DNA of 64,000 bases. Origin: an uncultured bacterium (GTDB lineage Bacteria; Patescibacteriota; Minisyncoccia; Moranbacterales; GWC2-37-73). Each line of letters starts with the position of its first letter. Positions within the stretch are counted from its first letter, which is position 1. Of the stretch, positions 3,719 to 59,659 are shown in pieces. The translations under genes were made by a program, and so were the position numbers. Under the pieces are notes generated by a model. The model was not told the DNA's origin. It did no database searches and saw only the letters and a program-made list of their open reading frames with translations. The stretch covers positions 13,136 through 77,135 of the forward strand of contig CAINNK010000008.1 in assembly GCA_903851135.1 (NCBI GenBank). The letters are read 5' to 3'.

Positions 3719-6139
3719 ATGAAAAGAATAAATTTATCCCTTTCTGGCATGCATTGCACTTCGTGCGCAATGTTGGTCGAGAGAACGCTTGGAAAAACGC
3801 CTGGCGTCCAAAAAGCTAGTGTGAATTTTCCGGCTGAAAAAGTTTTGGTTGATTTTGATGAGCAGATAACTGATGTGCAAAAAATCATCGCAGCCATTGG
3901 GCGGGGTGGTTATGGTGCGCAAGAAGTTGATGCTAAAGATAGTGAGTTTGAAGGCAAGAAAATAGCCAAAGAAGTTTCTGATTATTTCAGTAGGTTTATT
4001 TTCAGTGCAATTTTGAGCTCTCCAATGCTGTATTTCATGCTGCTGGATTTTTTCAAGTGGCTGCCTGGTGAAAAAGGCCTGGCACCATACGTGGGAATTT
4101 TCTCGCTGCTGCTGACGATTCCGGTGCAGTTTGTGGTTGGCAAAGATTTTTATAAAGGCATGTGGGCGGCACTGAAAATGAAAACTTTCAACATGGATAG
4201 CTTGATTGCAATTGGGACTTCGACGGCTTTTTTCTATAGTTCGTATAATTTTGCAACTTATGCAATTGCCAACAAGTCTGTGATTGGAGCGGGCGGAGCG
4301 AAAATTCCAGATCTCTATTTCGAAACCGCTGCCTATTTGATAACCTTCGTTATTTTGGGAAAGTGGTTGGAAATTCGCACTAAGGGAAAAACTTCTGATG
4401 CTATCAAAAAGTTGATGGGAATGCAGGCTAAGACTGCACGTGTCCTTCGGCAGGCTCAAGATAAAATTATCGAGATTGATATTCCGATTGAAGAAGTTGT
4501 GCATGGTGACATTATTCTTGTGCGTCCGGGAGAAAAAGTTCCAGTGGATGGAAAAATGACCAAAGGCGCATCTTCAGTGGATGAGTCCATGCTTACTGGG
4601 GAAAGTTTACCGGTAGAAAAAAGTGTCGGTAGCTTCGTGGTTGGAGGAACAATCAACAAGACTGGAAGTTTTGAATTTGAGGCCACAAAAATTGGCTCAG
4701 AAACGACGTTGGCTCAGATTATCCGCCTGATTGAAGAGGCTCAGGGATCAAAAGCACCGATTCAAAATTTTGCTGACAAAATTGCAGCTTGGTTTGTGCC
4801 AGCTGTAATTGGGCTTGCAATACTAACGTTTCTTGCTTGGTTCTTCGTGCTTGGCGGAACTTTGGCATTTTCACTTATGGCTTTCACTTCAGTGATTGTG
4901 ATTGCCTGCCCTTGTGCGTTGGGATTGGCCACGCCAACTTCCTTAATGGTGGGAACTGGCAAGGGTGCTGAGTATGGAGTGCTCGTGAAAGGTGGAGAAG
5001 CGCTTGAAGCAGCCAGTAATATTTCAGCGGTAATCTTTGACAAAACTGGAACACTTACTCATGGGAAACCGCAGGTGACGGATATCATGTCAATTGGCGA
5101 CATGGACGAGGATGAGATATTGGCAGTTTCCGCAAGTCTGGAAAAGCTTTCTGAACATCCCTTGGCGGAAGCGATTTATACGCATGCTCAAGAAAAAAAT
5201 ATCAACTTAAAAAATGTTGATGATTTCAATTCGATTCCTGGCCATGGTGTCAAAGGTAGTATTGGCGGAGTTGTTTATCATTTTGGCAATCGCAAGTTGG
5301 CGAGTGATTTGAGAATTAGTTTTGAGCATGTTAATGCTGAGCTGGAAAAGTTGGAGAATGAAGGCAAGACAGCGATGATTTTGACCGATGAAAAAAATGT
5401 TTTGGCCATCATTGCAGTGGCGGACACTGTGAAAGAAACTTCGCGCGAAGCTGTGGCAAAATTAAAAATGATGGGCATTGAAGTTTTCATGATTACTGGT
5501 GATAATTTGCGAACTGCTAAAGCGATTGCAAAACTTGTTGGCATTGACGAGCAGCATGTTTTGGCTGAGGTTTTACCTGAGGACAAAGCTAATGTGGTTA
5601 AGGCCTTGCAAGAAAATAATGTAAAAAAGCTTTCCGAATTATTTGGAAATTGGAAATTGGAAATTGGAAATTCTCGCCAAAGGCGAGCTGTGGCTATGGT
5701 TGGTGATGGCATTAATGATGCTCCGGCTTTAGCACAGGCTAATGTGGGCATTGCGATGGGCACAGGAACTGACGTGGCGATGGAGGCAGGCGATATTGTG
5801 ATTATGAAAAGTGATTTGAATGATGTGGTGACTTCACTGCAACTTTCCAAAGAAACCATGGGCAAGATTCGGCAGAATATGTTCTTTGCTTTGTTTTATA
5901 ACGTGATTGGCATTCCGATTGCGGCTCGGGTTTTCTTTGCGTTTGGATTGATTTTAAAACCGGAATTAGCAGGCTTGGCGATGGCGATGAGTTCGATTTC
6001 GGTGGTAGGAAATTCCTTGTTGCTGCGATTATTCAAACCTGGCAAAAAGAATTATATTTCAATGATTGCTCCAGTATTCATGGTCGTTGTTTTCACTTTT
6101 GGATTTGTGTTGTTTGCCAAGTTGAGTAGTGGTATGTAG
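3719..6139 (+). CDS. copA: Copper-translocating P1B-type ATPase (CopA family)
   Basis: N-terminal HMA with [13 protein letters not shown] motif ([11 protein letters not shown]). Phosphorylation site DKTGTLT. Motifs TGDN and [11 protein letters not shown]. 806 aa. In-frame repeat insert [20 protein letters not shown] (about 5630-5690) encoded by ttggaaattggaaattggaaatt. Confidence 0.92.
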
Positions 6140-6184
6140 TGAAATATTCTTGCAAAATTGACGTATTAATTAACGCCTTAATTT

Positions 6185-6289
6185 GTCATCCTAAATTTAT
6201 TTCAGGATCTTGGTTGGAGGAGGTTTTGTGAGGTGGAGAAAGCAGATTCTGAAACCCTCCAGAGGCGGACAGGCAAGTTCAGAATGACA
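6185..6289. promoter_or_regulatory. Paired hairpin motif (GTCATCCTAAATTTATTTCAGGATC ... GATTCTGAAAC-N19-AAGTTCAGAATGACA), the same family as at 46265-46349; candidate operator of a metalloregulator
   Basis: Each arm is an internal palindrome (ATCCT..AGGAT and ATTCTGAA..TTCAGAAT). Both variants recur upstream of the CsoR-family gene at 46265-46349. Located between the copA stop and the SHOCT gene. Confidence 0.35.
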
Positions 6290-6302
6290 GGAGTGTATTA
6301 CT

Positions 6303-6338
6303 ATTTGTAGATTTGTAGCAGATTTGTATATTTGTAGG
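6303..6338. repeat. Tandem repeat (ATTTGTAG)n
   Basis: atttgtagatttgtagcagatttgtatatttgtagg. The same family occurs at 18721-18755 and 29041-29068 (directly upstream of the leuS start) and 25800-25815 (start of the ABC permease gene). Confidence 0.85.
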
Positions 6339-6367
6339 GTGTAATTTTTAATTAATTCAAAAAACAT

Positions 6368-6640
6368 ATGATGTATGGATATGGCGTAAGTCATGGCGTG
6401 GGTTTGTTTGGGGAAATTTTTTCGTTGATTTTCTGGGCGGCGATAATTTGGCTTATTATAACCCTGGTGCGCGGCGGTCATCAACATGGCAAAAGTTGTT
6501 GTGGCGGGCATGGCGACGAGCAAAGGCCTGATAACGCCACGGAAATTTTGCGCCAGCGCTTTGCCAAAGGTGAAATTTCCAAGGAAGAATTTGAAAGCAG
6601 AAGCGCCGTGCTTGAAGGCAAAAAAGTGGAGGAAAAATAA
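6368..6640 (+). CDS. SHOCT-domain small membrane protein, His/Cys-rich
   Basis: N-terminal TM helix. HGGHQHGKSCCGGHGDEQ segment. C-terminal LRQRFAKGEISKEEFESRSAVLEG matches the SHOCT (short C-terminal) domain pattern. Follows the copper ATPase. Confidence 0.6.
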   Translation: MMYGYGVSHGVGLFGEIFSLIFWAAIIWLIITLVRGGHQHGKSCCGGHGDEQRPDNATEILRQRFAKGEISKEEFESRSAVLEGKKVEEK

Positions 6641-6659
6641 GGTTTATCTGAAAAGAAAA

Positions 6660-6687
6660 ATCAGAGTCTAGGCTCTGATTTTTTTAA
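6660..6687 (+). terminator. Rho-independent terminator
   Basis: atcagag-tctagg-ctctgat hairpin followed by an 8-T run, immediately after the SHOCT gene stop. Confidence 0.7.
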
Positions 6688-6717
6688 TGTCTCAAGTTTT
6701 ATACCCTACATTCAATA

Positions 6718-6746
6718 TTGACAGAAAAATAATTTATTGATAGCAT
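6718..6746 (+). promoter_or_regulatory. Sigma70-like promoter TTGACA-17-TAGCAT
   Basis: TTGACA at 6718-6723, 17-nt spacer, TAGCAT at 6741-6746. A good SD (AAGGGAG) lies 9 nt before the ATG at 6824. Confidence 0.35.
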
Positions 6747-6823
6747 CATATATCCACCTTAATAAACAATCATAACTATGATTTATAACTTTAACTGAAG
6801 ACTAACTAAGGGAGATACAAGCC

Positions 6824-7228
6824 ATGCTGGAAAATGCAAGAGAAATCGCCGTTGAGCGATGTGTTACGCAGCTCATTGAAGATAGTTTTTACAAGGGCTA
6901 CTTGAAAATTGGTGGTATGCAAATTGATTATGAGGCGACGTTCTTGATACCAGTTTCCAAACTCCATACTTCTGGCTGGAAATCTCTCAAGTGTATCGCA
7001 GAGGTTCGCAAGATTTTCCAGCTAACCTTGAGCAGTAAAGATAGTAATTTTATTGAAATGAGTGATGACGAAGCTGGTTTTTTCATTGGCATGCTCTTCT
7101 CTTTTATCATTGAAAACTTTAGTGAATCAGTATTTACTGTTAGTATAATTCACAATAGCAAAATTTACGTTAAGGATGATAAACTGATCAACATTTTGAG
7201 TGACAAAAAATATGGCTGTAAATTTTAA
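6824..7228 (+). CDS. Hypothetical protein (134 aa), orphan, with own promoter and SD
   Basis: Clean ORF with strong RBS. No recognisable motif. Flanked by AT-rich non-coding DNA (6688-6823 and 7229-7537). Confidence 0.5.
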   Translation: MLENAREIAVERCVTQLIEDSFYKGYLKIGGMQIDYEATFLIPVSKLHTSGWKSLKCIAEVRKIFQLTLSSKDSNFIEMSDDEAGFFIGMLFSFIIENFSESVFTVSIIHNSKIYVKDDKLINILSDKKYGCKF

Positions 7229-10467: not shown

Positions 10468-10974
10468 TTAAAAAAGCAGCAAGATGATTATTGCTATTAT
10501 TGAGAAAATAATGTCATTCAGGTTGTTTCGCAGGTTCCAATCATAACGTTTGTCACCTTTGGGATAGGGATGGACCCAGCCGTGGAAATCGTAGATTTTT
10601 TTGAGAAAGTTGAAATTAAGTTTCCAATACAAGACAGTTAGTAAATCTGGGAGTAGGGAGAAAAAAGTTCCAGTGAAAATATTTTTTGCAGTTTCAATTG
10701 AAGCGTGTGAGAACTTTAGGTAAACAATGATGATAGCAAGGCCCGCAAAAAGATCAAGCGCTACTTTCCAGGCTGTATTTTTGAAAGTTGATCGGCGATT
10801 AAGATATTCTCCATGACGAAAAGTGTCGAGACAATAATGCAGCGCAATAGCCAGGGGTGCTATAATAAAAGGGTTTCTGATTTGTTTGCCCAGGGCGGCA
10901 CCGACCAGGGCGTGAGTGATTAGAATCATAAAACAATTTGAAATTTTTAATTTGAAATTTGAAATGAAATCCAA
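10468..10974 (-). CDS. Polytopic membrane protein, possibly DUF457/YdjM-like metal-dependent hydrolase; true start may be the internal Met at 10929 (MILITHALVG)
   Basis: Hydrophobic helices with conserved His/Asp (ITHALVGAALG, HYCLDTFRHGEY, LLPDLL, FHGWVH). The first 15 codons overlap a ttcaaat tandem repeat and are probably not coding. Confidence 0.4.
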   Translation of the reverse strand: MDFISNFKLKISNCFMILITHALVGAALGKQIRNPFIIAPLAIALHYCLDTFRHGEYLNRRSTFKNTAWKVALDLFAGLAIIIVYLKFSHASIETAKNIFTGTFFSLLPDLLTVLYWKLNFNFLKKIYDFHGWVHPYPKGDKRYDWNLRNNLNDIIFSIIAIIILLLF

Positions 10975-11904: not shown

Positions 11905-13650
11905 TTGGGCAAAGCCCATTCAAATTTCTGCTACTGGATGAAAAAACAAATTCAAAAAATTATCGAAGATGCCTTGTTTAAGGTAAAAAATACCAATAAA
12001 TGGGTGGATTTTGAGATGCCTGAAATCATCATTGATTATCCAAAAAGTGAGCAATTTGGGGACTATTCTTCAAATATCGCCATGGTGTTGGCCAAAAAAA
12101 TTGGGAAAAGTCCAATGGAAATTGCAAGCCAAATTGTTATATTGTTAAATTGCTACATTGCTGAAAGGGAATTGAGTAAAACTTTTAAAAAGGTAGAGGT
12201 TGCAGCGCCAGGCTATTTGAATTTTTATTTGTCGAAAAAATATTTGCAGGATTTAGTTTTAAAAATAAATACTGAGAATGATAGTTTTGGAAACGGTGGA
12301 AAGAAAAAAGAAAAAGTGATGGTGGAATTTTCTCAACCAAACACACACAAAGAATTTCACATTGGTCATTTGCGCAATGTTTTTGTTGGTGATTCGCTCG
12401 TTAAGGTTATTAGAAAAGCTGGTAGCCAAGTGATTGGCGCAAACTACATTGGTGATACTGGATCTCACATTGCAAAATGTTTGTGGGGTATCACCAAATT
12501 TCACAGCCAAGAGAACCTTGATGAAATTTCAAATAAGGCTGAATTTTTGGGAAAGGTTTACACTCAAGCTGTGCAAGCGATTGCGGAAAATGCTGAATTT
12601 GAAAATGAATTTAAAAACATTCAAAATGAATTTGAAAATGGCGATCCAAAGTTGGTTGATTTGTGGCAAAAAACCAAGCAATGGTCTTTGGATGATTTTC
12701 AAAAAATTTATGATCAGTTGAGTGTGTTTTTTGACGTGTATTTTTGGGAAAGTGAAGAGGAACTTGAAGGCAAGAAAATGCTCAAGGAATTGCTGAAAGT
12801 TTCTTGCATCAAAGAAAGTCAGGGCGCTATTGTGGCTGATTTGGAAGAATACGGATTGGGCGTGCTTGTTTTGGTCAGAAAAGATGGGAGCGCGCTTTAT
12901 GGACTCAAGGACATTTCCTTGGCGGTGAAAAAATTCAGAGAATTTGAAATTGACCGAAGCGTGATTGTGGTTGATTTGCGTCAGAGTTTGTATTTCAAGC
13001 AATTGTTCAAAGTGCTTGAGTGTATGGGTTTTCACAAGAATATGCAGCATGTCGGCTATGAATTTGTTTCCTTGAAGGGAAGTGAGATGATGTCTTCCAG
13101 AAAAGGAAATATTATTCCGGCAACCTATTTGATTCAAGAAACTATTAAGAGAGTGAAGGAAAAATTTCCAGAAACTGATGTGGCTGAGCAAATTGCAATC
13201 GGGGCTTTGAAATTCTATATGCTGAAATATTCTTCGCAATCAAAAATTGAATATGACATTGAAGAATCTGTGAAGCTAGATGGAGCAACCGGACCGTATG
13301 TGCAATACGCACATGCCAGAATCTGTAGTATTTTAAAGAAGGCAGAAGACTTAAAGTATGACGAAAATTTGGCATTACTGGTGAATGAAAAAGAGTTAAG
13401 TTTAATCAAAGAACTTAATAATTTTCCACAACTAGTGGAGTTGGTGGCTGAAACTTATGAGGTTAATAAGCTTGCTCATTATGCTATTAAATTGGCGGAT
13501 AAATTTCATTCTTTTTATGGTGCTTACAAGGTTATTGATGAGCAAAATCCGCAGCTTTCGGGCGCTAGACTTGCTTTGATAAATGCGGTTAAAATTGTGC
13601 TAGCCGAGACGTTGGCCCTGATTGGAGTTGAAGCGCCAGAGAAAATGTAA
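11905..13650 (+). CDS. argS: Arginyl-tRNA synthetase
   Basis: Class I HIGH variant (EFHIGHLRN). C-terminal DALR anticodon-binding-like region. The protein ends ...GVEAPEKM, the terminal-Met signature of ArgRS. TTG start with AGAGG SD. 581 aa. Confidence 0.85.
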   Translation: MGKAHSNFCYWMKKQIQKIIEDALFKVKNTNKWVDFEMPEIIIDYPKSEQFGDYSSNIAMVLAKKIGKSPMEIASQIVILLNCYIAERELSKTFKKVEVAAPGYLNFYLSKKYLQDLVLKINTENDSFGNGGKKKEKVMVEFSQPNTHKEFHIGHLRNVFVGDSLVKVIRKAGSQVIGANYIGDTGSHIAKCLWGITKFHSQENLDEISNKAEFLGKVYTQAVQAIAENAEFENEFKNIQNEFENGDPKLVDLWQKTKQWSLDDFQKIYDQLSVFFDVYFWESEEELEGKKMLKELLKVSCIKESQGAIVADLEEYGLGVLVLVRKDGSALYGLKDISLAVKKFREFEIDRSVIVVDLRQSLYFKQLFKVLECMGFHKNMQHVGYEFVSLKGSEMMSSRKGNIIPATYLIQETIKRVKEKFPETDVAEQIAIGALKFYMLKYSSQSKIEYDIEESVKLDGATGPYVQYAHARICSILKKAEDLKYDENLALLVNEKELSLIKELNNFPQLVELVAETYEVNKLAHYAIKLADKFHSFYGAYKVIDEQNPQLSGARLALINAVKIVLAETLALIGVEAPEKM

Positions 13651-18597: not shown

Positions 18598-18803
18598 TAT
18601 TCTTCAATGAAGTCTTTGCGAGCATGTAATCATGCGAAGTAATCCAGGGCTCTGTAAAATCCTGGATCGCCACAGATTTCGAGTACAAAATCTTCGCGAT
18701 GATGAGGGGGAATAAAATTTATTTGTAGATTTGTAGCTGATTTGCAGATTTGTGGGTCTTTTTCTAAAATCCAGAATCAAGAATCTAAAATCTGTCCCAA
18801 AAA

Positions 18804-19520: not shown

Positions 19521-19613
19521 GGTTCAAATTGTTATATTGTTACATTGCTAAATTGTTGAAAATTTTTAAAAGATTTACTTTTCCTTTGAGTTTTTTTACT
19601 CTATAATATCCAT

Positions 19614-39785: not shown

Positions 39786-41006
39786 ATGAACAATCAAAAA
39801 TTGGAACAATTTTTGCAAGATAATAATTTGCCCAAGTTTCGCTTGGGACAAATTCAAAAAGCCATCTTTCAAGACGGAGCTACTTCGTTTGGGGAAATTA
39901 CAACCCTTTCAAAAGATTTGCGAGAAAAAATGGAAAAGGAAATGAGAATCCTTTCTTTTGAGGTTGAAAAAGTTTTGGTGGCCGGTCCTGCCCGCAATGC
40001 TACGCGTAATGTTGCGAATGGCTTTGCTAATAATAACATTTCTTTGTCTCAACAATCTGAAGATAATAACGAGCATAGCGTTGCAGGCGGGGACGGTCAA
40101 TCAATTAAGGCGCTTTTGAAACTTGTTGATGGAAACCTGATTGAAACCGTCCTGATTTCACCCAAGCCGGGCACTTGGTCAGCATGCATTTCTTGCCAGG
40201 TTGGTTGCGCGATGGGTTGCCGCTTTTGCGCCACTGGCAAAATGGGTTTCAAGCGAAATCTGACCGCCGAAGAAATCACCGATCAGATTCTTTTTTGGAA
40301 ACAATACCTTTCTAAAAATCTAAAATCTAAAATCCTAAATCCTAAAACGGATGTTGCTGAAAATAATAAAAAAAATAATTCTGAGCCTTTTGGAATTTGT
40401 AATTTAGAATTTGGAAATTACAATATTGTAAACAATATTGTCTATATGGGTATGGGTGAGCCTTTTAATAATTGGGAAAATGTTTCCCAAAGCATCAATG
40501 ATTTGACAAATGAAAAATTGTTTGGCTTTGGATCGCGCAGTCTTTCGGTTTCAACTTCCGGGATTGCTAGTGGCATTGAAAAAATGTCCAAAGAGTTTCC
40601 GCAAGTAAATCTGGCCATTTCTCTGCATTTTGCCAGTGACGAAAAACGTGACCGTTATATGCCGGTCAACAAAGTTGACAATCTGGAGAATCTAAAAAAA
40701 GCTTTGCAAGAATATTTTCAGGTGACAAAACGAAAAGTTTTTTTGGAATATATTATGCTCGATGGAGTCAATGACACCGCCTTGGATGCCAAAATGCTGG
40801 CGCAGTATTTGCACAGTGTTGGCAATGCACATCTTTTGCATGTGAATTTAATTCGCTATAATGCGACCAGTGTAGATCTGAAACCTTCCTCAAAAAACAG
40901 AACGCAACTTTTCAAAAAAGAATTGGAAAAATATTTCATCAACGCCACCATCCGCAAAAGTTTAGGTGAGGAGATCAAAGGAGCTTGCGGGCAATTGGCC
41001 TCTTAA
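39786..41006 (+). CDS. rlmN: 23S rRNA (A2503-C2)/tRNA methyltransferase RlmN (radical SAM)
   Basis: N-terminus LPKFRLGQIQKAIFQDGATSFGEITTLSKDLREKM. Radical-SAM CQVGCAMGCRFC. C-terminal GACGQL. Contains an about 45-aa in-frame low-complexity insert (NLKSKILNPKTDVAENNKKNNSEPFGICNLEFGNYNIVNN) encoded by (CTAAAAT)n and tttggaatttg repeats at 40316-40440. Confidence 0.9.
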   Translation: MNNQKLEQFLQDNNLPKFRLGQIQKAIFQDGATSFGEITTLSKDLREKMEKEMRILSFEVEKVLVAGPARNATRNVANGFANNNISLSQQSEDNNEHSVAGGDGQSIKALLKLVDGNLIETVLISPKPGTWSACISCQVGCAMGCRFCATGKMGFKRNLTAEEITDQILFWKQYLSKNLKSKILNPKTDVAENNKKNNSEPFGICNLEFGNYNIVNNIVYMGMGEPFNNWENVSQSINDLTNEKLFGFGSRSLSVSTSGIASGIEKMSKEFPQVNLAISLHFASDEKRDRYMPVNKVDNLENLKKALQEYFQVTKRKVFLEYIMLDGVNDTALDAKMLAQYLHSVGNAHLLHVNLIRYNATSVDLKPSSKNRTQLFKKELEKYFINATIRKSLGEEIKGACGQLAS

Positions 41007-41839: not shown

Positions 41840-43480
41840 CTATAACTTTTTCACTAAATACGTGTCCTTTAATTTGTATCCAGCTTTTCGATAATAATTT
41901 CGCACGCCGATGCCGGAGATGACGACAATTTTTTTCAGGCCATATTCTTCTTTGGCGATACGCTCAGCTTCGAGCAGCAGTTTTTTCCCCAGGCCGATAT
42001 GCTGTGGCGATTTGGAATCCTTTTCATCAATTTGGGTCATTTTACCATAGGTGTGAACTTCGCGGATGATAGCTGCGTTTTGAAGAACAGGCAACATTTT
42101 ATACATTTTGTCATTCCCACAGGAACTTGGAATTCGCAAACGCAAAAGGGCAAAAAGTTTTTTCTTGTCTGGGCTGACATATTGCAGAAAAATTTCGCGG
42201 CCATCGGAAGCAGTGTAGTCAATTCGATCCAAAACAATTGATTCTTTGATGGTGTAACCTTCGCGGACTTCACGGCAACGAATGCAGGGACAATTTGACT
42301 GGGGAATAATGATCTGACGTAGATTAGAAACTGTCGGACCAGCGATGATTGAGCAGGTCGGCACATCTCGAATCAGACGAGCAATGCGAACATAGGGAAC
42401 AATCGCCTCATTTTTGATTTTCAAAACCAATTTTTCAAAAATCTTATTCGTCAGTGGTTTGTAGTTTCCATTTTTCCAGATTTTATAGAGTAAGCTGTTT
42501 TTTAAAACGACAGTTGGATAAATTTTGAGCATGTCGGGTTGAAATTGTTGATTTTCAAAGAGGGTCTTAAACATCTCAAAATCCCGCTTGGGGGTTGATC
42601 CTGGCAGTCCTGGCATCATGTGATAGTTGATCTTGAAACCGGCATCCTTGAGCAATTTGGTTGCTTGGATTGTGCTTTGGATAAGATGTCCGCGTTTATT
42701 GAAAACCAAAACATCGTCATAAATGCTTTGCACGCCAAGTTCCACTCGGGTGCAGCCAAGCTCTCGAAAATTGAGAATTTCTTTTTCATTGATATAGTCC
42801 GGCCTGGTTTCCAAAGTTAGCCCAATAATCCGATGTTTAGTCTTCTCATTTTTCTTCTGCTGGATTTCCATTTTATCATTTGCACTTAGCGTTCCACGTT
42901 CCACGTTTTGCATTTTACGTTCACGTTCCACGTTCCACGTTCCACGCTTCGCGTATTCATTGCACGCCTGAAAACACCTCGTGATAAATTTTTTCTGATA
43001 AGCTTTGGGCAGATAGGAAAAAGTTCCGCCCATCACAATCAATTCGATTTTGTCGGTTTTGTGACCATTAAGTTCCAGTGAGCGCAAGCGACTTTGGACT
43101 TGCAAATATGGGTCGAAATGCGAATCAATGGCCCGCATCACGGCCGGCTCATTGGAGAGATAGCTTTTCGGCATTTCTTTTTCACTGGGGCAATAAATGC
43201 ATTTGCCTGGACAAGGATATGATTTGGTTAGCACTGCCACCACAGCCACGCCTGATTGGGTGCGGATGCGACGACTGAGCAGAATTTTTTCGAAAGCGGG
43301 GTTGGGCTTGACGATGTTTTCCAAAACCAAATCATTGTAGCGATCGCGCAAGTCAGCATTGGTTGGAATTGGAAGTTTGTATTGTTTGGAAAGTTTTTTC
43401 TTGAGCTGCAAAAACTCCTCCTGGGTTTCAGGAAGCTCTTCAATTGCCGAGATGATGAAATTGTCGTAAGCTGAATTCAT
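41840..43480 (-). CDS. Elp3-family radical SAM / GNAT acetyltransferase (tRNA U34 carboxymethyl-type modification enzyme homolog)
   Basis: Elp3 hallmarks SYPCPGKCIYCP (radical SAM cluster) and a C-terminal GNAT region (HIGLGKKLLLEAERIAKEEYGLKKIVVISGIGVRNYYRKAGY). 546 aa. Carries an in-frame (GTTCCAC)n-derived insert AKRGTWNVERERKMQNVERGTL (plus-strand 42884-42950). Confidence 0.85.
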   Translation of the reverse strand: MNSAYDNFIISAIEELPETQEEFLQLKKKLSKQYKLPIPTNADLRDRYNDLVLENIVKPNPAFEKILLSRRIRTQSGVAVVAVLTKSYPCPGKCIYCPSEKEMPKSYLSNEPAVMRAIDSHFDPYLQVQSRLRSLELNGHKTDKIELIVMGGTFSYLPKAYQKKFITRCFQACNEYAKRGTWNVERERKMQNVERGTLSANDKMEIQQKKNEKTKHRIIGLTLETRPDYINEKEILNFRELGCTRVELGVQSIYDDVLVFNKRGHLIQSTIQATKLLKDAGFKINYHMMPGLPGSTPKRDFEMFKTLFENQQFQPDMLKIYPTVVLKNSLLYKIWKNGNYKPLTNKIFEKLVLKIKNEAIVPYVRIARLIRDVPTCSIIAGPTVSNLRQIIIPQSNCPCIRCREVREGYTIKESIVLDRIDYTASDGREIFLQYVSPDKKKLFALLRLRIPSSCGNDKMYKMLPVLQNAAIIREVHTYGKMTQIDEKDSKSPQHIGLGKKLLLEAERIAKEEYGLKKIVVISGIGVRNYYRKAGYKLKDTYLVKKL

Positions 43481-44185
43481 ATGAAAAAAGAAATTGCAGA
43501 AAAAATATTAAAGGAAACTGAGATTGGCTATGACTTGATCTCTCAGAAATTTTCTCAAACCAGAAAACATTTTTGGCGCGGTTTGGAGTTCATAAAGGAT
43601 TATACGCACGAAGGCGATAAAGTTTTGGATTTTGGCTGTGGCAACGGGCGTTTGCTTGAATTGCTTGGAGAAAATAGTGCTGAATATTATGGCGTTGATG
43701 TCTCCCAGGCTTTGATTGATTTTGCCAAGCAAAAATATCCCAAAGCTTACTTTTTCAAGATGAACCCCAGTCAAACAAGCTTAGCATTCGAAGCTGAATT
43801 TTTCAATACCATTTATAGTATTGCGGTTTTTCATCATTTTCCTTCTCAAAAATATCGTCAGGATGTCGTAAAGGAACTTTACAATAAAACGAAAAATGGT
43901 GGTCGAATTATTGTCACCGTCTGGTATCTTTTTCAAGAGAGGTACTTCAAAAATATTTTGCAAAATTGGTTTGCAAAATTGCAAGGCAACAGCCAGTTGG
44001 ATTGGAATGATTGCGAAATTTCTTTCACAGATAATCAAGGCAAACGTTTTTGGCGTTTTCACCACGCTTTCACCAAAAGAGAACTGCAGAAACTTTTCCA
44101 AGAGGCTGGCTTTGAAATTGAAAAATGTGAGATTGTGGGCGGGCGAAACATATTGCTGATTGGTAGAAGGGCAGATTCTGGATGA
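43481..44185 (+). CDS. Class I SAM-dependent methyltransferase, Trm9-like (tRNA U34 carboxymethyl methyl-esterifying family)
   Basis: ISQKFSQTRKHFW...FI and VLDFGCGNGRLL parallel Trm9 IAPHFSQTRYKPW...FL and IDVGCGNGKYL. YSIAVFHHFPS...GGRIIVTVWYLFQ parallels Trm9 ISIAVVHHWST...GGQALIYCWALEQ. Start codon abuts the elp3 start (CATATG). Confidence 0.7.
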   Translation: MKKEIAEKILKETEIGYDLISQKFSQTRKHFWRGLEFIKDYTHEGDKVLDFGCGNGRLLELLGENSAEYYGVDVSQALIDFAKQKYPKAYFFKMNPSQTSLAFEAEFFNTIYSIAVFHHFPSQKYRQDVVKELYNKTKNGGRIIVTVWYLFQERYFKNILQNWFAKLQGNSQLDWNDCEISFTDNQGKRFWRFHHAFTKRELQKLFQEAGFEIEKCEIVGGRNILLIGRRADSG

Positions 44186-44395
44186 TAGATTTTAGATTTT
44201 AGAATAAATACGGGTAAGTAGATTCTGGATGATAGATTTTAGATTTTAGAATAAATACGGGTAAGTAGATTCTGGATGATAGATTTTAGATTTTAGAATA
44301 AATACGGGTAAGTAGATTCTGGATTTTAGATTTTAGAATAAATACGGGTAAGTAGATTCTAGATGATAGATTTTAGATTTTAGAAATGATATTAT
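44173..44395. repeat. Tandem repeat array, about 47-bp unit x about 4.5 copies
   Basis: Unit AGATTCTGGATGATAGATTTTAGATTTTAGAATAAATACGGGTAAGT repeated head-to-tail. The 4th copy lacks 7 nt and the 5th is partial. Overlaps the 3' end of the methyltransferase gene. No unique spacers. Confidence 0.85.
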
Positions 44396-44788: not shown

Positions 44789-44831
44789 AAATATATTCTA
44801 AAATCTAGAATCTAAAATCTATATTCTATTA

Positions 44832-45647
44832 ATGAACATTTTTCAATCAATCATACTTGGTATCTTGCAGGGTTTGGGTGAGTTTTTGCCGATTTCGTCG
44901 ACGGCGCATTTGATTTTGGCGCCGTGGTTTTTTGGTTGGAGTGATCCAGGCCTTTCTTTTGACGTGGCGCTTCATCTGGGAACCCTGATTGCTGTGGTTG
45001 GATTTTTTTGGCGAGATTGGCTTATTATTTTTCAGCTTGCGCTTCAAAAAATTTCAAATTTCAAATTTCAAATTTCAAATTCTGCGGAGAAGTATCCTTC
45101 ACAGCTGCTTTGGCTCTTGGTCATCGCTTCTGTTCCGGGCGCAATTTTCGGAATGCTTTTTGACAGCAAGGCGGAAGCGACTTTTCGCAATCCGCTTTTG
45201 ATTGCTTTTACTTTGAGTGTGGTCGGGTTGATTTTGTTTTTGGTAGATAAATATGCCGCCCATCGCAAGGAGCTTGGCAAGCTGACAAAACTGGACGCAT
45301 TTTGGATTGGTCTTTCTCAGGCCGTGGCCATTATTCCGGGCGTATCACGCTCTGGGGCCACAATGACCACGGGACTTTTCTTGGGACTCTCACGCCAGCA
45401 AGCAGCCCGTTTTTCTTTTTTGCTTTCTACCCCAATCATTTTTGGGGCGGCCATTGTGAAAGTCCCGCATCTCTTGAAAGATGGAATCAGTATGGCAATT
45501 CTTTTTGGCATTTTAGCCTCGGCCATTACTGGTTATTTGGCCATCAAATTCATGCTTCGCTTCATTCAAAAAGTTGGCTACGCCCCATTTTTTTGGTATC
45601 GCTTGGCCTTGGCTGCGGTTGTGGTGATGGTATATTTTTTGAGGTAA
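44832..45647 (+). CDS. uppP: Undecaprenyl-diphosphatase (UppP/BacA)
   Basis: N-terminus ILGILQGLGEFLPISSTAHLILAPWFFGWSDPG...FDVALHLGT. Second conserved block GVSRSGATMTTGLFLG. In-frame (TTCAAAT)3 insert KISNFKFQISNS at 45050-45080. Confidence 0.9.
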   Translation: MNIFQSIILGILQGLGEFLPISSTAHLILAPWFFGWSDPGLSFDVALHLGTLIAVVGFFWRDWLIIFQLALQKISNFKFQISNSAEKYPSQLLWLLVIASVPGAIFGMLFDSKAEATFRNPLLIAFTLSVVGLILFLVDKYAAHRKELGKLTKLDAFWIGLSQAVAIIPGVSRSGATMTTGLFLGLSRQQAARFSFLLSTPIIFGAAIVKVPHLLKDGISMAILFGILASAITGYLAIKFMLRFIQKVGYAPFFWYRLALAAVVVMVYFLR

Positions 45648-46150: not shown

Positions 46151-46264
46151 TTTGGTGAGGTTAAAAACTGGTGGTACCAATGGGTAGCCAGTTTTTTTAT
46201 TTTCAAAATTTGACGCATTTCATTTTTATGTTAAAATACCCCTAGGAGGTATACAAATAAAAAT

Positions 46265-46349
46265 GTCATTCTGAACTTGTTTCAGAATCTACTTTCTTTA
46301 TTTAACAATACTGCCTGTAATCGAGATCCTGAAACAAGTTCAGGATGAC
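46265..46349. promoter_or_regulatory. Paired hairpin motif (GTCATTCTGAACTTGTTTCAGAATC ... GATCCTGAAACAAGTTCAGGATGAC) upstream of csoR; same family as 6185-6289
   Basis: Two 25-bp internally palindromic arms in inverted orientation, about 35 bp apart, 45-130 bp upstream of the CsoR-family gene. Confidence 0.35.
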
Positions 46350-46392
46350 ACAAAAGAATATTCCTAATTCTTAAAGGATAACTCCTAAACAT

Positions 46393-48428: not shown

Positions 48429-48522
48429 TGTATACTCCTGATTCAGGGTTAGTTTTTTCTTTTCTAAAATTTTTAAAAAACAAAAAATCCATGAGAGGAT
48501 TTTTGATCTTTTGGTTTTTGGG

Positions 48523-48597
48523 GTGGGCGTGCCTAGATTCGAACTGGGGACCTCGTCATTATCAGTGACGCGCTCTAACCAACTGAGCTACACGCCC
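48523..48597 (-). tRNA. tRNA-Ile (anticodon GAU)
   Basis: Minus-strand sequence GGGCGTGTAGCTCAGTTGGTTAGAGCGCGTCACTGATAATGACGAGGTCCCCAGTTCGAATCTAGGCACGCCCA gives a cloverleaf with a 7-bp acceptor stem and anticodon loop CUGAUAA. One C-A mismatch in the T-stem. Confidence 0.8.
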
Positions 48598-48726
48598 GTA
48601 TGTGGACCGGACAGGACATTTTACGTCGCTTTCGTTCCTTGGAAACCCATGGTTTCCAAAACCTTCCTCCAACGGAAAACTCCCGTTTTCCGACCCTTTC
48701 CCGTTCAAGTTGAAAAAAGAGTTTTG

Positions 48727-48799
48727 TGGACCGGACAGGACTTGAACCCGCTACCTCCTCAGTGCAAATGAGGCGCTCTACCAGGTGAGCTACCGGCCC
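48727..48799 (-). tRNA. tRNA-Ala (anticodon UGC)
   Basis: GGGCCGGTAGCTCACCTGGTAGAGCGCCTCATTTGCACTGAGGAGGTAGCGGGTTCAAGTCCTGTCCGGTCCA. Canonical cloverleaf, G3:U70-type Ala acceptor, anticodon loop UUUGCAC. Confidence 0.9.
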
Positions 48800-49880: not shown

Positions 49881-49956
49881 AGTAAAAACTTTTAATTTTC
49901 CTGTGTCTTTGACAGCTTCTCTGGAAGATTAAAATTTAGGAGAAATTTTATAGATA

Positions 49957-50031
49957 TTGTTATATTGCTAAATTGTTATATTGCTAAAATGCATGATTAA
50001 CAATATAGCAATATGGCAATATAACAATTTA
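49957..50031. promoter_or_regulatory. Palindromic TTGTTATATTGCTAAA module (tandem and inverted copies) forming the rplK upstream region; near-identical copy upstream of the gene at 52099
   Basis: ttgttatattgctaaattgttatattgctaaaatgcatgattaacaatatagcaatatggcaatataacaatttaaatttATGG. The 52018-52098 copy ends caatttaaattATGG. Single arms lie at 19527-19563 and 28047-28075. Confidence 0.5.
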
Positions 50032-51950: not shown

Positions 51951-52098
51951 GTTTAGAGTTTCCTTGTTTACTTGTAATTTCTCTAGAAAATTAAAATTTA
52001 AGTAGAACTTTTATAGAAATTGTTATATTGCTAAATTGTTATATTGCTAGAATGCATTATTAACAATATGACAATATAACAATGTAGCAATTTAAATT

Positions 52099-52650: not shown

Positions 52651-52688
52651 TAATTGCAATTTTAATATTAATTTAATATTTTATCTTT

Positions 52689-54087: not shown

Positions 54088-54089
54088 TT

Positions 54090-54455: not shown

Positions 54456-54456
54456 T

Positions 54457-55053: not shown

Positions 55054-55084
55054 TGGTTTCTTTATCTATTAAGAATTAAAAATT

Positions 55085-55906: not shown

Positions 55907-55925
55907 AAATATTTTTTAAAAAATA

Positions 55926-56351
55926 ATGAAAATTCAAATCAAGAAAATTCATCCAGATGCAAAAATCCCACACTTTTCTTTGGAGGGTGATGTGGGCATG
56001 GATTTGTATTCAGTGCAGGATATTGTCATGAAAGCTGGTGAAAGAATTTCTTGTAAAACTGGAATTGCGATTAAAATTCCAAGAGGTTATGCGGGTTTAA
56101 TTTGGGACAAAAGTGGACCTTCGCACAAATTTGGCATAAAAACATTAGGAGGTGTTATGGATAGTAATTATGTCGGAGAATATTTGATAGGCCTGGTAAA
56201 TCTAGGGCAAGAAGATTTCATGATTGAAAAAGGTCAGAAGATTGCACAGGTTATTTTTCAAAAAATTGAAATTCCGGAAATTGAGGAAGTGGATGAGTTG
56301 GAAGAAACAAACCGAGGTGACGGAGGTTTCGGAAGTACGGGCTTAAACTAA
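55926..56351 (+). CDS. dut: dUTP diphosphatase
   Basis: Motifs GDVGMDLYS, RSG-like IKIPRGYAGLIWDKSG and GVMDSNYVGE. 141 aa. Confidence 0.9.
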   Translation: MKIQIKKIHPDAKIPHFSLEGDVGMDLYSVQDIVMKAGERISCKTGIAIKIPRGYAGLIWDKSGPSHKFGIKTLGGVMDSNYVGEYLIGLVNLGQEDFMIEKGQKIAQVIFQKIEIPEIEEVDELEETNRGDGGFGSTGLN

Positions 56352-56453
56352 AAGAGTTGCTACTCTTTTGCTATCGTCGCTCGCTCGGAAATGAAAGAGC
56401 ACTTTCATTTCTCTCGCTTCGCTAGATAATAAATTTTTATTTTTTAATATACT

Positions 56454-56993
56454 ATGAAACAGAAAAATATTGAAGCAGAAATTAGAAGTTTTGTTTCGGA
56501 AGATCAGTATAAAAAACTTTTAAGATTTTTTAAAAAAGAAGGAAAGTTTTTGGGAGTGGAGAATCAAATCTCTTATTATTTTTCTGGGGATCGAGATTTG
56601 AGAATTCAAAAAAGCGATAAAAGTGCTAAGATTTGGCTCAAAAAAGGTGAAATGCATGCTGACTCACGAGAAGAAATTGAAGTCAAGTTTGATGTCAGTC
56701 AATTTGAAAATGCTGAGAATTTGTTTAAGGTGCTTGGTTACGAAGTTAAGATTAAATGGTTTCGCAAGCGCAGCACTTTTTCTTGGAAAGGTATTAGTGT
56801 AATGTTGGATGATACGAAAGGGTATGGTCGTATTATTGAATTGGAAAAAATGTGCAAAGAAAATGAAAAAGAAAAAATAATTGGAATGTTGAAAAATAAG
56901 CTAGCATTGTTAAAAATAGCTGAAACTCAGAAATCTGAATTTGGTGAAAAATTTGAGTATTACAAAAAGAATTGGAAAAAATTAACAAAATAA
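56454..56993 (+). CDS. CYTH-domain protein (class IV adenylyl cyclase / triphosphatase fold)
   Basis: EIE-x-K N-terminus (EAEIRSF), DRDLRIQK, REEIEVKF and GRIIELE glutamate/arginine pattern typical of the CYTH triphosphate tunnel. Confidence 0.6.
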   Translation: MKQKNIEAEIRSFVSEDQYKKLLRFFKKEGKFLGVENQISYYFSGDRDLRIQKSDKSAKIWLKKGEMHADSREEIEVKFDVSQFENAENLFKVLGYEVKIKWFRKRSTFSWKGISVMLDDTKGYGRIIELEKMCKENEKEKIIGMLKNKLALLKIAETQKSEFGEKFEYYKKNWKKLTK

Positions 56994-57127
56994 AAAATTT
57001 ATTTTGTTAGGGTATTTTTGAGAATTTAAAAATCATTGGAAATTAGGATTTGGAAATTTGAGCGCTAAAATAGCATTGAAAATATCGCTTAAAGGTGAGG
57101 CATAATAAGTATAAAAAATATAATTTT

Positions 57128-58621
57128 ATGACTAAATATATTCCCGTCATCGGCATGGAGGTTCATGTGGAATTGAAGACCAAATCAAAGATGTTTTGTG
57201 GTTGCAAAAATGGACTTGGACAAGAAAGTGCGCCAAACATCCATGTTTGCCCAGTTTGCACTGGTCAACCTGGCACTTTGCCAGTGCCGAATCAGCAGGC
57301 GATTGAATTTGTGCAGTTGGCTGGTTTGGCGCTCAATTGTGAGCTTAATTTGAAGTCAAAATTTGACCGAAAAAATTATTTTTATCCTGATTTGCCGAAG
57401 GGTTATCAAATCTCACAATATGATCAACCGCTTTGTGGACTGGGCAAAATGAATGTTGTCATCAGCAATAACCAAGAAACAATAACCAAGTCAATAGGAA
57501 TCACGCGAATTCATCTTGAAGAGGACACTGGTAAGCTTGTGCATCCAACCGGGGCTAGCTATACCCTGGTTGATTTTAATCGTGCTTGCGTGCCATTGAT
57601 GGAACTGGTGACTGAGCCGGATATTGAAAATGGTGAGCAGGCTCGCTTGTTTTGCACCAAATTGCAGCAAATTTGTCGTTACCTTGGAATCTCAGATGCA
57701 GACATGGAGAAAGGCAATATGCGCTGTGAAGTCAATTTGTCGCTGCACAAAGAAAATGAAGAAAAACTTTCTGGCACTAAGGTTGAAGTGAAAAACATCA
57801 ATTCTTTTCGCTATGTGGAAAAAGCCATCAACTATGAAATTGAAAGGCAAACAAAACTCTTGGATGAGGGTGAGAAGATTGTGCAAGAAACGCGAGGTTG
57901 GGACAGTGTGAAAAACGTGACGGTTTCGCAACGCAAAAAAGAATCTGCGCATGATTATCGCTATTTTCCAGAGCCAGATATTCCACCGATGGAATTTTCT
58001 CAAAGCTATGTTGATCAATTGCGCTTGAAATTGCCAGAACTTCCTGCTGCTAAGGAAAAAAGATTTGCCGGTGAGTATGGTTTAAAAGCGGATGATATTG
58101 CCGTGCTTACTGCTGCTCAAGATTTGGCGCAGTATTTTGAAAATATCATGAGCGAACTTCGGGAAAAAATTACTTCCCATGAAATTCAAGCTTCAGAGGA
58201 AAAGGCAACAAAATTGGCTGTTAATTATCTTATTTCCGAACTGCGAAAACACTTGGCTGAAAACAAACATGATGTGAGGGATTTGAAAATCAGTTCCGAA
58301 AATTATGCGGAACTGATTGGGATTGTGGCAGATGGGAAAATAAACTCTAGTGCTGCTCAGATCGTACTTAAAGAGATGTATCATACGGGTGGCGATCCAT
58401 CTCAGATTATTGCCGAAAAAAATCTTGGGCAAATGGAGGACGCCGGCGAGTTGGAAAGCGCGGTGGAAAAAGTGCTAGCTGACAATCAAAAATCGGTGGA
58501 TGATTTTAAAGCTGGTAAAGAAAATGCCCTCAAGTTTTTGATGGGACAGGTGATGAAGGAGACTGGCGGCAAAGCGAATCCGCAAGTGGTGCTGGAGATG
58601 TTGAAAAAGAAAATAAGCTAA
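57128..58621 (+). CDS. gatB: Asp-tRNA(Asn)/Glu-tRNA(Gln) amidotransferase subunit B
   Basis: MTKYIPVIGMEVHVELKTKSKMFCGC canonical GatB start. C-terminal GatB/YqeY domain. Start chosen at ATG 57128 rather than the ORF-track 57095. Confidence 0.9.
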   Translation: MTKYIPVIGMEVHVELKTKSKMFCGCKNGLGQESAPNIHVCPVCTGQPGTLPVPNQQAIEFVQLAGLALNCELNLKSKFDRKNYFYPDLPKGYQISQYDQPLCGLGKMNVVISNNQETITKSIGITRIHLEEDTGKLVHPTGASYTLVDFNRACVPLMELVTEPDIENGEQARLFCTKLQQICRYLGISDADMEKGNMRCEVNLSLHKENEEKLSGTKVEVKNINSFRYVEKAINYEIERQTKLLDEGEKIVQETRGWDSVKNVTVSQRKKESAHDYRYFPEPDIPPMEFSQSYVDQLRLKLPELPAAKEKRFAGEYGLKADDIAVLTAAQDLAQYFENIMSELREKITSHEIQASEEKATKLAVNYLISELRKHLAENKHDVRDLKISSENYAELIGIVADGKINSSAAQIVLKEMYHTGGDPSQIIAEKNLGQMEDAGELESAVEKVLADNQKSVDDFKAGKENALKFLMGQVMKETGGKANPQVVLEMLKKKIS

Positions 58622-58666
58622 ACAGATTCTAGAATCTGGATTCTTGATTTTAGTATCTGCGGAAAG

Positions 58667-59659
58667 TTATTCAAGAAATTTTTGCACTTCTTTTCGGATA
58701 CTCTTATAATCACTGCACCAAATGATGTTCGGATTTCTTTGAAGCCAAGTCATTTGTCTCTTGGCGTAGTGAATGATGGCAAAATATAGTTTTTCGCGTG
58801 CACCCGAGGCGCATCCGCCTTGGGCGGACATTTCTCCTAATTCTATTTTTCCTTGCAAGAATCTGGAAATCCAGCGATATTCCAAGCCGATTCTTTCTAG
58901 CCATTCCCATGAAACTCCCTGTTTATGCAGTTTTTCCACTTCGGCAGTCATACCTTCTTTGAATCGCTCATCTAGGCGGATTTGGATTTTTTCATTTAAA
59001 ATTTCCCTTGAAACCCTGATCCCAATTTCCAAGAAATTGTATTTTACTGTGAACTGTGAACTAGTAACAGTGAACTGTGCTGGCACCTTTCCAATCGCTT
59101 GGCAAATTTCAATGGCTCTGATTAGGCGCACTTTATTTTGACTATCGATATTTTTGGCGCGCTCGGGATCAAGTTTTTCAAGTTTTGCAAACAATTCTTC
59201 TGTGGTTTCCAGGGCAAGTTGCCCGCGCAGAATTTCATCTGGCGGAACTTCCGGCAGGTTCAAATCTTTGGTTAGCGCATCAATCCAAAAAGCCGTTCCG
59301 CCGCAAATAATGGGAATTTTTTTGCGACTGAGAATCTCCTTGATTTTCTCTTCGGCCATTTTTTTGAAATGCGAAACGTTGAAATCTTCTTGGGGTTTGG
59401 CTACGTCAATCAAATGATGTCGGATGCCTTTGGAAAAGAAACCTTCCCTTGGTTGGAAAATTGAAAATTTGAAATTGAAAAATCCCGTGAAATCTTTTCT
59501 GACTTTACCGGTTCCGATGTTTAGACCTTTGTATATTTGTCGGCTGTCAGCCGAAATGATTTCGCCACCGAATTTCTTGGCAAGCTTAATAGCCACATCT
59601 GATTTTCCAGAGGCTGTGGGGCCCATGATGACTATTATTTTCGGCTTATCTTTCGACAT
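58667..59659 (-). CDS. miaA: tRNA dimethylallyltransferase
   Basis: P-loop IIVIMGPTASGKS and ISADSRQIYKGLNIGTGK. Two in-frame repeat-derived inserts (KDFTGFFNFKFSIFQPREGFFSKG from the ttggaaa repeat at 59455-59480; QFTVTSSQFTV from the cagttcacagt repeat at 59037-59075). Confidence 0.9.
   Translation of the reverse strand: MSKDKPKIIVIMGPTASGKSDVAIKLAKKFGGEIISADSRQIYKGLNIGTGKVRKDFTGFFNFKFSIFQPREGFFSKGIRHHLIDVAKPQEDFNVSHFKKMAEEKIKEILSRKKIPIICGGTAFWIDALTKDLNLPEVPPDEILRGQLALETTEELFAKLEKLDPERAKNIDSQNKVRLIRAIEICQAIGKVPAQFTVTSSQFTVKYNFLEIGIRVSREILNEKIQIRLDERFKEGMTAEVEKLHKQGVSWEWLERIGLEYRWISRFLQGKIELGEMSAQGGCASGAREKLYFAIIHYAKRQMTWLQRNPNIIWCSDYKSIRKEVQKFLE

Follow-up and report, generated by a model that had tools for sequence, protein, structure and literature searches.

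Heptanucleotide arrays, many joined to hairpins half made of host codons, in housekeeping genes of Moranbacteria

Odd insertions of unexplained origin are a known feature of the proteins and rRNAs of bacteria of the candidate phyla radiation (CPR), whose genomes are tiny and gene-dense. Here we analyze a 64-kb stretch of DNA from an ultra-small, uncultured member of the Moranbacterales (contig CAINNK010000008.1, positions 13,136 to 77,135 of the forward strand; 64,000 nt, hereafter the window), in which short head-to-tail arrays of 7-nt units lie inside copA, rlmN, uppP, miaA and other genes. Several described systems resemble these tracts in part. The Rickettsia palindromic elements are reportedly selfish DNA inside protein-coding genes, 100–150 bp long and with a conserved family sequence, and the cyanobacterial STRR/SDR elements are said to be short heptamer arrays that are grouped with the TAACTGA repeats. 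Quasi-palindrome template-switch mutagenesis (the Ripley model) and snap-back templated insertion in end joining (Pol-theta-type repair) copy a short piece of neighbouring sequence in inverted form across a small loop and yield paired changes in the two arms.

According to PMC4679880, Mrazek, Guo & Shah (2007) reported heptanucleotide simple sequence repeats (SSRs) as the commonest of the 5–11-nt units in prokaryotes and explained them by polymerase slippage; the same excess, with the same explanation, appears in PMC4692102. The TAACTGA repeats of Beggiatoaceae, cyanobacteria and Bacteroidetes consist of 2–6 copies located mostly between genes, just upstream of start codons, and those found inside open reading frames (ORFs) occur in the stop-free orientation only, encoding the heptad peptide SVISYQL (PMC4679880). 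In the text of that paper reached by keyword search, no adjoining host-derived hairpin is mentioned for them. In Borgs, tandem repeats create disordered protein regions (PMC9879509). In the literature that we searched, neither heptamer arrays of CPR nor arrays coupled to a target-derived hairpin are described. The Moranbacteria tracts are repeat-derived and lineage-specific, originate at the level of DNA, occupy tolerant loops and are filtered for stop-free units. They turn over, at least one of them changing by whole units in nature, and many form a polar module with a hairpin of which one half is made of host codons.

The window has 39% GC, a strongly positive GC skew and almost all of its genes on the same strand. 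Exact runs of at least three copies are present six times at period 7, compared with 0.0 in shuffled sequences, and are absent from the 64 kb at periods 5, 6 and 8–15. With up to two mismatches allowed, there are 27 period-7 tracts versus 0.4 expected from shuffles (~70-fold), while period 8 yields three tracts and period 6 yields eight versus 3.3 expected. The tracts thus have the defining features of long simple sequence repeats (LSSRs), a head-to-tail unit of 5–11 nt that is over-represented for the base composition, and no comparable excess is seen in the window at periods 5, 6 and 8–12. A first-pass annotation, made from the sequence alone, had singled out five tracts, in copA, rlmN, uppP and miaA and at the 5' end of a membrane-protein gene, and had read them as repeat-derived, in-frame inserts. 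All five are present where they had been placed (coordinates and match percentages are from Tandem Repeats Finder), although the list was incomplete, as further coding tracts lie at 785–813, 3145–3182, 42890–42950, 59046–59079 and 60754–60789. The reading itself is supported: homologs of solved structure do not have the copA, rlmN and miaA segments, the corresponding loops are hypervariable in Moranbacteria, and instead of inserts conserved among distant orthologs each lineage displays different heptamer-encoded peptides.

The excess extends to related genomes. The relatives of the window's RlmN in genomes assigned to species belong to Candidatus Moranbacteria/Moraniibacteriota, in the Parcubacteria group, the closest being a metagenome-assembled genome (MAG) from a lake (L006, 92%). 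Nearly all low-GC Moranbacteria loci contain period-7 tracts, most of them at ~1–6.6 per 10 kb, whereas control loci from Lachnospiraceae/Bacteroidales (n = 20) contain 0–1 per locus. In 481,552 nt of Moranbacteria DNA, of which 87% is coding, the tracts number 59 in coding sequence, 51 in intergenic sequence and 14 at edges. Their units are of many kinds, and what is special is therefore the period of 7 and not any single motif; per base, intergenic DNA is ~6-fold enriched in tracts. An assembly artefact was rejected, since identical RlmN, CopA, UppP and MiaA are encoded on 15–21 independent contigs from several samples, and the contigs L001–L005 match the window. Polarity of the arrays relative to replication was also considered and rejected as weak and inconsistent between sets: TTGGAAA lies on the C-rich strand at 56 metagenomic loci and on the G-rich strand at 26, and in the Moranbacteria loci the counts are 24 versus 17 in the opposite direction.

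Stop codons limit which arrays survive in genes. Since 7 and 3 share no common factor, arrays with three or more units pass through all three reading frames, and a unit whose cycle includes TAA, TAG or TGA thus cannot be maintained within a gene. The consensus unit of coding tracts is stop-free on the coding strand in 45 of 59 cases and on the opposite strand in 25 of 59, as compared with 17 and 21 of 51 on the two strands of intergenic tracts. In an AT-rich genome, this leaves stop-free units such as AAATTTC, AAAATTC, AAATTGG and AATTTCC, which are exactly those found in genes, and TTGGAAA has no stop on either strand.

The copA gene (3719–6139, plus strand) encodes a Cu+ P-type ATPase of 806 aa (Pfam E1-E2_ATPase, Hydrolase and HMA; PDB CopA 3j09, E = 8.6e-183). 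A perfect (TTGGAAA)x4.3 array (5643–5672, 100% matches) is contained in an insert region at 5618–5691 that adds 21 aa (residues 634–654, 63 nt) after a KxxVKxLQ helix, where the alignment leaves a gap in A. fulgidus CopA at residue 596. The extra loop previously noticed ahead of the GDGINDAP hinge is real, all 21 residues being missing from homologs with solved structures. Among 120 Moranbacteria orthologs, 56 have a canonical loop of five residues and ~25, with identities down to 66%, share the insert, with 17–26 residues that in some cases are built around FQNSKLKIQNS. Orthologs of 66–74% identity retain (TTGGAAA)x4, perfect or with one mismatch, between flanks that have diverged at synonymous sites; a perfect DNA repeat in such surroundings argues for a cause at the level of DNA and not of protein. 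Directly 3' of the array is a junction hairpin, CTCGCC-AAA-GGCGAG (5673–5687; DNA folding z = -3.1), and orthologs have other perfect stems at the same place: CCACCC-GTA-GGGTGG, CCCGTC-CGA-GACGGG and CCACC-CGAAT-GGTGG. The shortest allele (L055) can be read as a 31-nt array followed by CCACCC and GT, placed between the ancestral residues G-K and R-V-A, in which case its distal arm GGGTGG would be the R-V-A codons themselves. As a separate observation on this family, the Moranbacteria CopA orthologs (P0160–P0277) range from 772 to 1229 aa, and many have several hundred extra residues elsewhere in the protein.

The copA array also varies in copy number. A 6.9-kb contig from another assembly (L053) aligns with the window over 6828 nt with no mismatches and a single 7-nt gap, which falls in the array: three TTGGAAA units instead of four shift the frame and result in a CopA of 668 residues without the GDGINDAP hinge. 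Repeat-length heterogeneity, which the first-pass annotation had proposed as a check, is thus observed between contigs, and this pair is the sole case seen of the whole-unit polymorphism between close relatives that is typical of LSSRs. In another variant, 94% identical in CopA (P0003/L054), exactly 63 nt are missing; its flanks are typical of short-loop alleles (EVKKLQ, not VVKALQ), so that an exchange of alleles seems likelier than a precise deletion. A change of one unit is also what would be expected of a contingency locus, in which heptamer copy number toggles a gene adaptively, as in E. coli K1 neuO, described as phase-variable via heptanucleotide repeats (PMC13001214 and PMC9659370). 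A 7-nt unit is not divisible by 3, and the gene frameshifted by the natural 3-unit variant is a metal-efflux gene, which is conditionally useful. Nevertheless, phase variation fits the data poorly and we consider it very improbable: the arrays are short (~4 units), the copA variant is found on one contig among ~17, no array variants were found among cluster members for uppP, miaA, rlmN and a MiaB-like gene, and the hosts, which also include CarB and UvrD, are not of the contingency type but mostly essential housekeeping genes (rlmN, miaA, uppP and those for LeuRS and SecA), which it would be harmful to switch off. Frameshift variants were also suspected at an ACGCTCC array (60754–60789) and discarded, the truncated cluster members being broken elsewhere.

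The rlmN gene (39786–41006, plus strand) encodes a radical-SAM rRNA/tRNA methyltransferase of 406 aa (Pfam RlmN_N and Radical_SAM; PDB Cfr/RlmN). Compared to solved structures the protein has ~43 extra residues, close to the ~45 first estimated, at aa 172–214 (insert 2, 40299–40427), between a helix ending in ITDQILFW and the strand NIVYMGMGEP. Both of the expected heptamer tracts are there: degenerate TCTAAAA/ATCCTAA units at 40311–40347 and degenerate TTTGGAA/TTTGTAA/TTTAGAA units at 40389–40419 that end in GGAAATT (the Tandem Repeats Finder tract continues to 40431). The second tract leads into a junction hairpin, ACAATATTGT-AA-ACAATATTGT (40420–40441; DNA folding z = -4.8), in which the codons for N-I-V, from the conserved NIVYMGMGEP, make up the distal arm and their reverse complement the proximal one. 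Thirteen tract-bearing rlmN genes have the hairpin, four others with a tract do not (L017, L018, L023, L027), and it is also missing from orthologs without a heptamer tract (L014, L021, L022, L025, L030). In an alignment of 11 sequences, 97.4% of the cells are paired, three of the seven pairs change on both sides, and the covariation score was reached in none of 500 shuffles.

The RlmN loop is hypervariable in Moranbacteria, with heptamer-encoded peptides that differ by lineage. At the position where the window has the unit AAAATCT, the 92%-identical L006 has AAATTAC, a concerted replacement of one unit by another. Between the window and L001–L005 there is no repeat-length variation near rlmN, and the length differences of the neighbouring radical-SAM gene reflect start-codon calls. 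Other kinds of sequence are also inserted in this gene. A second in-frame insert of 35 aa (aa 66–100, AGPARNATRNV...HSVAGG; 39981–40085) is found only in the window and L006 and ends in an imperfect inverted repeat, CCTGCCCGCAATGCTA / TAGCGTTGCAGGCGGGG, while other Moranbacteria RlmN proteins have unrelated inserts near the same site (CHCERISQQ.., CHPELVSGS..IPDQVRND). An intergenic 27-nt inverted repeat of the window, TGTCATTCTGAACTTGTTTCAGAATCT / AGATCCTGAAACAAGTTCAGGATGACA (46264–46350), belongs to a palindrome family that, when translated, gives the peptides CHPELVSGS / LKQVQDD, and these occur as in-frame inserts in the RlmN of L015, L016 and L027. One of the contigs that match the window, L003 (ERZ18624148 scaffold_1125), does so up to ~43037 and is then fully diverged to its end, roughly 90 nt past a CGTTCCA array, reflecting either a strain rearrangement or a chimeric contig end.

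In uppP/bacA (44832–45647, plus strand; 271 aa; Pfam BacA 2.5e-78; PDB 5oon), a perfect (AAATTTC)x4.7 array (45049–45081, 100% matches) encodes ISNFKFQISNS within a loop at aa 66–85. The tract had been correctly recognized, but it causes no net insertion: the loop is of nearly equal length in orthologs and in E. coli UppP, the latter having an unrelated sequence. Among Moranbacteria lineages the loop is hypervariable, and its unit can be (AAATTTC)n, (TTTTCAA)n or (TTACCGA)n. The seven cluster members all have the array unchanged, as does L017, which has a UppP of 80% identity and a uppP gene with a perfect hairpin, TGAGGCG-TACC-CGCCTCA, with a distal arm made of Y-P-P-Q codons.

The tRNA isopentenyltransferase gene miaA (58667–59659; 330 aa; Pfam IPPT 4e-58; PDB 2qgn) has degenerate heptamers at 59453–59483, as the first-pass annotation had it, within an insert at aa 57–76 (59432–59491) that faces an 18-aa gap in 2qgn. 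The gene is on the minus strand, however, the TTGGAAA-like units being those of the plus strand; the tract is therefore read as FFNFKFSIFQ. A second tract (59046–59079; ACTGTGA on the plus strand) encodes FTVTSSQFTV. In homologs the first loop spans 10–50 aa with heptad periodicity, and its variants include an AGTCATC x3 unit, KIQDTRY (AAGATAC x3) and no insert at all. An AlphaFold model of the window's MiaA, based on a 73-sequence alignment, has a mean predicted local distance difference test (pLDDT) score of 84.6 and falls below 50 only at residues 57–70 and 196–203, which are the two heptamer tracts, and at 281–283, in a small GC-hairpin insert. The last of these segments belongs to an insert of 9–10 aa, SAQGGCASGA (aa ~277–287; 58795–58830, minus strand), that is absent from a 93%-identical MiaA (P0019) and consists of two small GC-rich hairpins, TCCGCC-CAA-GGCGGA and GCGCC-TCG-GGTGC. 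The corresponding motif, CGCCNAAGGCG, is present three times in the window versus 0.02 expected, the other copies being at 5675 and 47990, which is too few to build on.

To determine how general the copA module is, metagenome contigs were scanned exactly for (TTGGAAA)3TTC, which gave at least 120 stretches; the counts that follow are among the matches listed. Most copies (115/120) fall within an ORF of 100 aa or more, with 45 in the sense orientation (encoding GNWKLEI) and 70 in antisense (ISNFQFP), and the hosts include CarB, LeuRS, SecA, a GT4 glycosyltransferase, DUF2298, UvrD and another P-type ATPase, in which the site is different. In 43 of 120 copies, a hairpin whose stem is 7 or longer begins within 8 nt downstream, compared with 3/121 upstream and 16/600 at random positions. 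Paired arm changes preserve the hairpin at orthologous loci (for example, CCGCC/GGCGG, CCGGC/GCCGG, CGGCG/CGCCG, TCGCC/GGCGA), and in LeuRS the codons for L-A-Y, within the conserved motif WYYLAY, form the distal arm. In about one-third of the copies, more degenerate heptamers are found at the array's far side, so that the purest units are those next to the hairpin. A search with the peptide (GNWKLEI)n retrieved mostly short spurious ORFs over long arrays; the named sources of such arrays, annotated as short hypothetical proteins (P0278, P0293, P0350, P0392), are Moraxella sp., Tychonema, Microcoleus and a Sumerlaeota MAG. Similar arrays hence exist outside CPR, which is uninformative on inserts within genes.

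A heptamer followed by a stem-loop resembles a frameshift site, and A-AAT-TTC fits the X-XXY-YYZ pattern, so the module might be a signal in mRNA, for programmed -1 frameshifting or attenuation. Yet TTGGAAA in its reading frame is not a slippery site, and the hairpin is as frequent in sense (22/43) as in antisense genes (33/69), accompanying about half of the listed copies in either orientation; this equality indicates that the structure belongs to DNA and not to mRNA. Alternatively, the heptad peptides (GNWKLEI, ISNFKFQ) could be functional loops under selection, as might be suggested by the conservation of an 11-residue insert peptide in many CopA orthologs. What speaks against this is that the same peptide is found in unrelated proteins, the window's CopA and the RlmN of L010, that the loops are hypervariable and predicted to be disordered, and that the conservation is at the level of DNA, synonymous positions included. 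Frameshift signals and functional peptides both fit poorly, and we regard this pair of explanations as the least probable of those considered here.

A dedicated mobile element deserves more attention. The tracts could be non-autonomous miniature elements, an array of ~30–45 nt plus a hairpin, copied by an enzyme of their own (an HUH/Y1 transposase, as for REPINs, or another) and surviving in genes since they are stop-free on both strands, like the Rickettsia palindromic elements. The same unit at near-equal length (30–33 nt in 89 of the 120 listed) in at least 120 contigs, the location of nearly all listed copies inside ORFs in both orientations and in unrelated housekeeping genes, the presence/absence alleles of copA and the polar architecture with a structured end are all in line with that explanation, and the uniformity of unit and length makes it a serious rival. 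Against it, the copies showed neither a direct target-site duplication nor a fixed left end, no dispersed copies of the sequences flanking the copA insert are present within the window, and arrays with many other units exist. Moreover, each locus has hairpin arms of its own, the distal one belonging to the host sequence, which would leave a sequence-specific enzyme nothing conserved to recognise there. No GTAG/CGTC tag of the REP/REPIN type is common to the hairpins by eye, no search for a RAYT gene having been made. On balance we think a mobile element of this kind unlikely.

The opposite extreme is that the arrays are plain microsatellites, grown in situ by replication slippage from chance seeds, with no role for the hairpin and no copying between loci, selection merely filtering frames and stops. 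The prevalence of heptanucleotide SSRs in prokaryotes (PMC4679880, PMC4692102), the diversity of units and the ±1 unit polymorphism in copA are all compatible with this explanation, and a possible seed, TTTGGGAAAAAG, is found at this site in the copA allele without the insert. Plain slippage would, however, leave unexplained the one-sided enrichment of hairpins (36% versus 2.5% on the other side, among the listed matches), the host-derived inverted arm, and the presence of an identical perfect array in orthologs whose synonymous divergence is saturated. Nor does it account for the narrow length mode: stepwise slippage of LSSRs would spread the array lengths, and in this sample, biased by its search pattern, most perfect arrays are 30–33 nt long in spite of a search floor of 24 nt. 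We consider slippage by itself to be quite unlikely.

The explanation that we favor, and to which we give about an even chance, is that the tracts are lineage-wide heptanucleotide arrays of Moranbacteria that originate at the level of DNA, are compatible with coding, were later changed by slippage and are not selected as peptides. The arrays would be written into DNA by a process that acts on nucleic acid, and their persistence in coding DNA would require two conditions, a unit that is stop-free in every frame and a loop that tolerates any sequence. Many of the arrays are polar modules in the order 5'-(xxAAATT)n, an inverted copy of the next host bases, a loop of 2–5 nt and the host codons-3'. 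Based on this anatomy, a 3' DNA end at a break or a stalled fork could fold back and copy a few host bases (snap-back priming), the gap then being filled by a heptamer array, either from local slippage or copied from another array. Slipped-strand mispairing would subsequently drive the turnover of the array, whereas template switching would keep the quasi-palindrome perfect and so mimic compensatory evolution; the proteins would merely tolerate the products as disordered surface loops.

Several points weigh against this explanation. The uniform length of the arrays and the recurrence of one unit across many unrelated genes are easier to reconcile with a copied element than with slippage that arose separately at each site, and the metagenomic sample is biased, with the 3' TTC and the single unit fixed by the scan pattern. 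Not every tract has the hairpin: within the window only copA and rlmN have a significant one, the hairpin being weak at uppP (z = -1.4) and insignificant in DNA folding of the miaA tract (z = +0.6), and considering all Moranbacteria heptamer tracts a stem of at least 6 accompanies 30 of 124, versus 11.5% of control sites. A change in copy number was observed in a single contig and at a single locus. Only the anatomy of the loci suggests fold-back priming, with no donor, enzyme or intermediate identified, and selection on the hairpin or the array for a function in DNA would yield the same covariation. A bolder form of the proposal, which we put forward tentatively and would not expect to hold in full, is that the arrays are an enzyme-independent selfish repeat of CPR: a stop-free array that spreads between genes during the repair of breaks or forks, each insertion leaving as its mark a fold-back hairpin templated by the target, and that continually builds disordered loops in essential proteins, making housekeeping genes switchable via 7-nt slippage.

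The fifth tract, of AATTTGA/AAATTTC type (10935–10965, minus strand), had been placed at the 5' end of a membrane-protein gene called at 10468–10974. The tract exists, but it is upstream of the coding sequence as publicly called (10468–10929), which starts at ATG 10929 (153 aa, 21 contigs); the 168-aa version with a TTG start is not on public record. Between genes, TCTAAAA/TCTAGAA arrays at 44797–44829, 18763–18793 and 2026–2067 stop short of the start codons of uppP and of two further genes by 3, 11 and 48 nt, respectively. Their units contain TAAAAT/TAGAAT, resembling -10 hexamers, and no Shine-Dalgarno sequence is evident before uppP. Folding of intergenic arrays revealed no clear pattern of adjoining hairpins. 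Also upstream of uppP, between it and a methyltransferase gene, is a 47-nt tandem repeat (44173–44385; x4.7, 91% matches) with TAGATTT heptamers in each unit. Arrays with units of 8/16 nt (AAATTGTTATATTGCT) are located at 49954–50028, 52017–52095, 19526–19570 and 12131–12160, the first two being inverted pairs of ~32 nt that could form long hairpins, and the ORF at 114–1379 contains an (ACAGTTC)n tract (780–802) with an inverted copy 38 nt away (841–863). Only two tRNAs in the window reach the gathering score of Rfam covariance models; tRNA-Ile(GAT) and tRNA-Ala(TGC) adjoin each other at 48522–48799, as in a 16S-23S spacer, and no rRNA gene was found in the 64 kb.

Arrays of 7-nt units provide one concrete source for the odd insertions in CPR proteins, and, being readable in every frame on either strand, they are among the few repeats that such a genome can tolerate inside genes. 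The array with its target-derived hairpin is a mutational signature and a route for the birth of new protein loops, as well as a hazard or a switch for essential genes. In practice, gene callers and aligners will mis-handle these loops and the frameshifted alleles, and the arrays could act as strain markers in metagenomes.

The comparison with described systems places the tracts between several of them. With prokaryotic heptanucleotide SSRs they share the head-to-tail 7-nt units, the variety of units, the strong genome-specific excess and the change of length by slippage, but a large share of the Moranbacteria tracts are in frame within housekeeping genes and coupled to a host-derived junction hairpin. 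Like the Rickettsia palindromic elements, they are coding-compatible, in-frame insertions at tolerant sites of conserved proteins, absent from some orthologs and palindromic in character; unlike them, they have no common palindromic consensus of ~100–150 bp, sharing only an array of ~30 nt, and the palindrome is locus-specific and half host-derived. The TAACTGA repeats are also short heptamer arrays that give heptad peptides when stop-free in ORFs, but they have a single favored unit and are mostly intergenic, whereas Moranbacteria have many units and the listed TTGGAAA copies are almost all intragenic. E. coli K1 neuO likewise has a 7-nt coding repeat that is read in three frames and shifts frame with ±1 unit, as does copA with three versus four units, the differences being that neuO is a phage-borne surface-modification gene with long arrays at the N-terminal end, while those of Moranbacteria have ~4 units and are internal to housekeeping genes. 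Borg repeats are comparable in being rapidly evolving, recently formed tandem repeats in ORFs that add disordered loops, although Borgs are archaeal extrachromosomal elements, and the repeats described here are in chromosomal genes of CPR bacteria, where the 7-nt unit, not divisible by 3, passes through all three frames. Finally, template-switch and snap-back mutations have in common with the module the inverted arm across a small loop and the simultaneous change of both arms, but they are known as sporadic events, whereas the Moranbacteria module is recurrent, genome-wide and joined to heptamer arrays.

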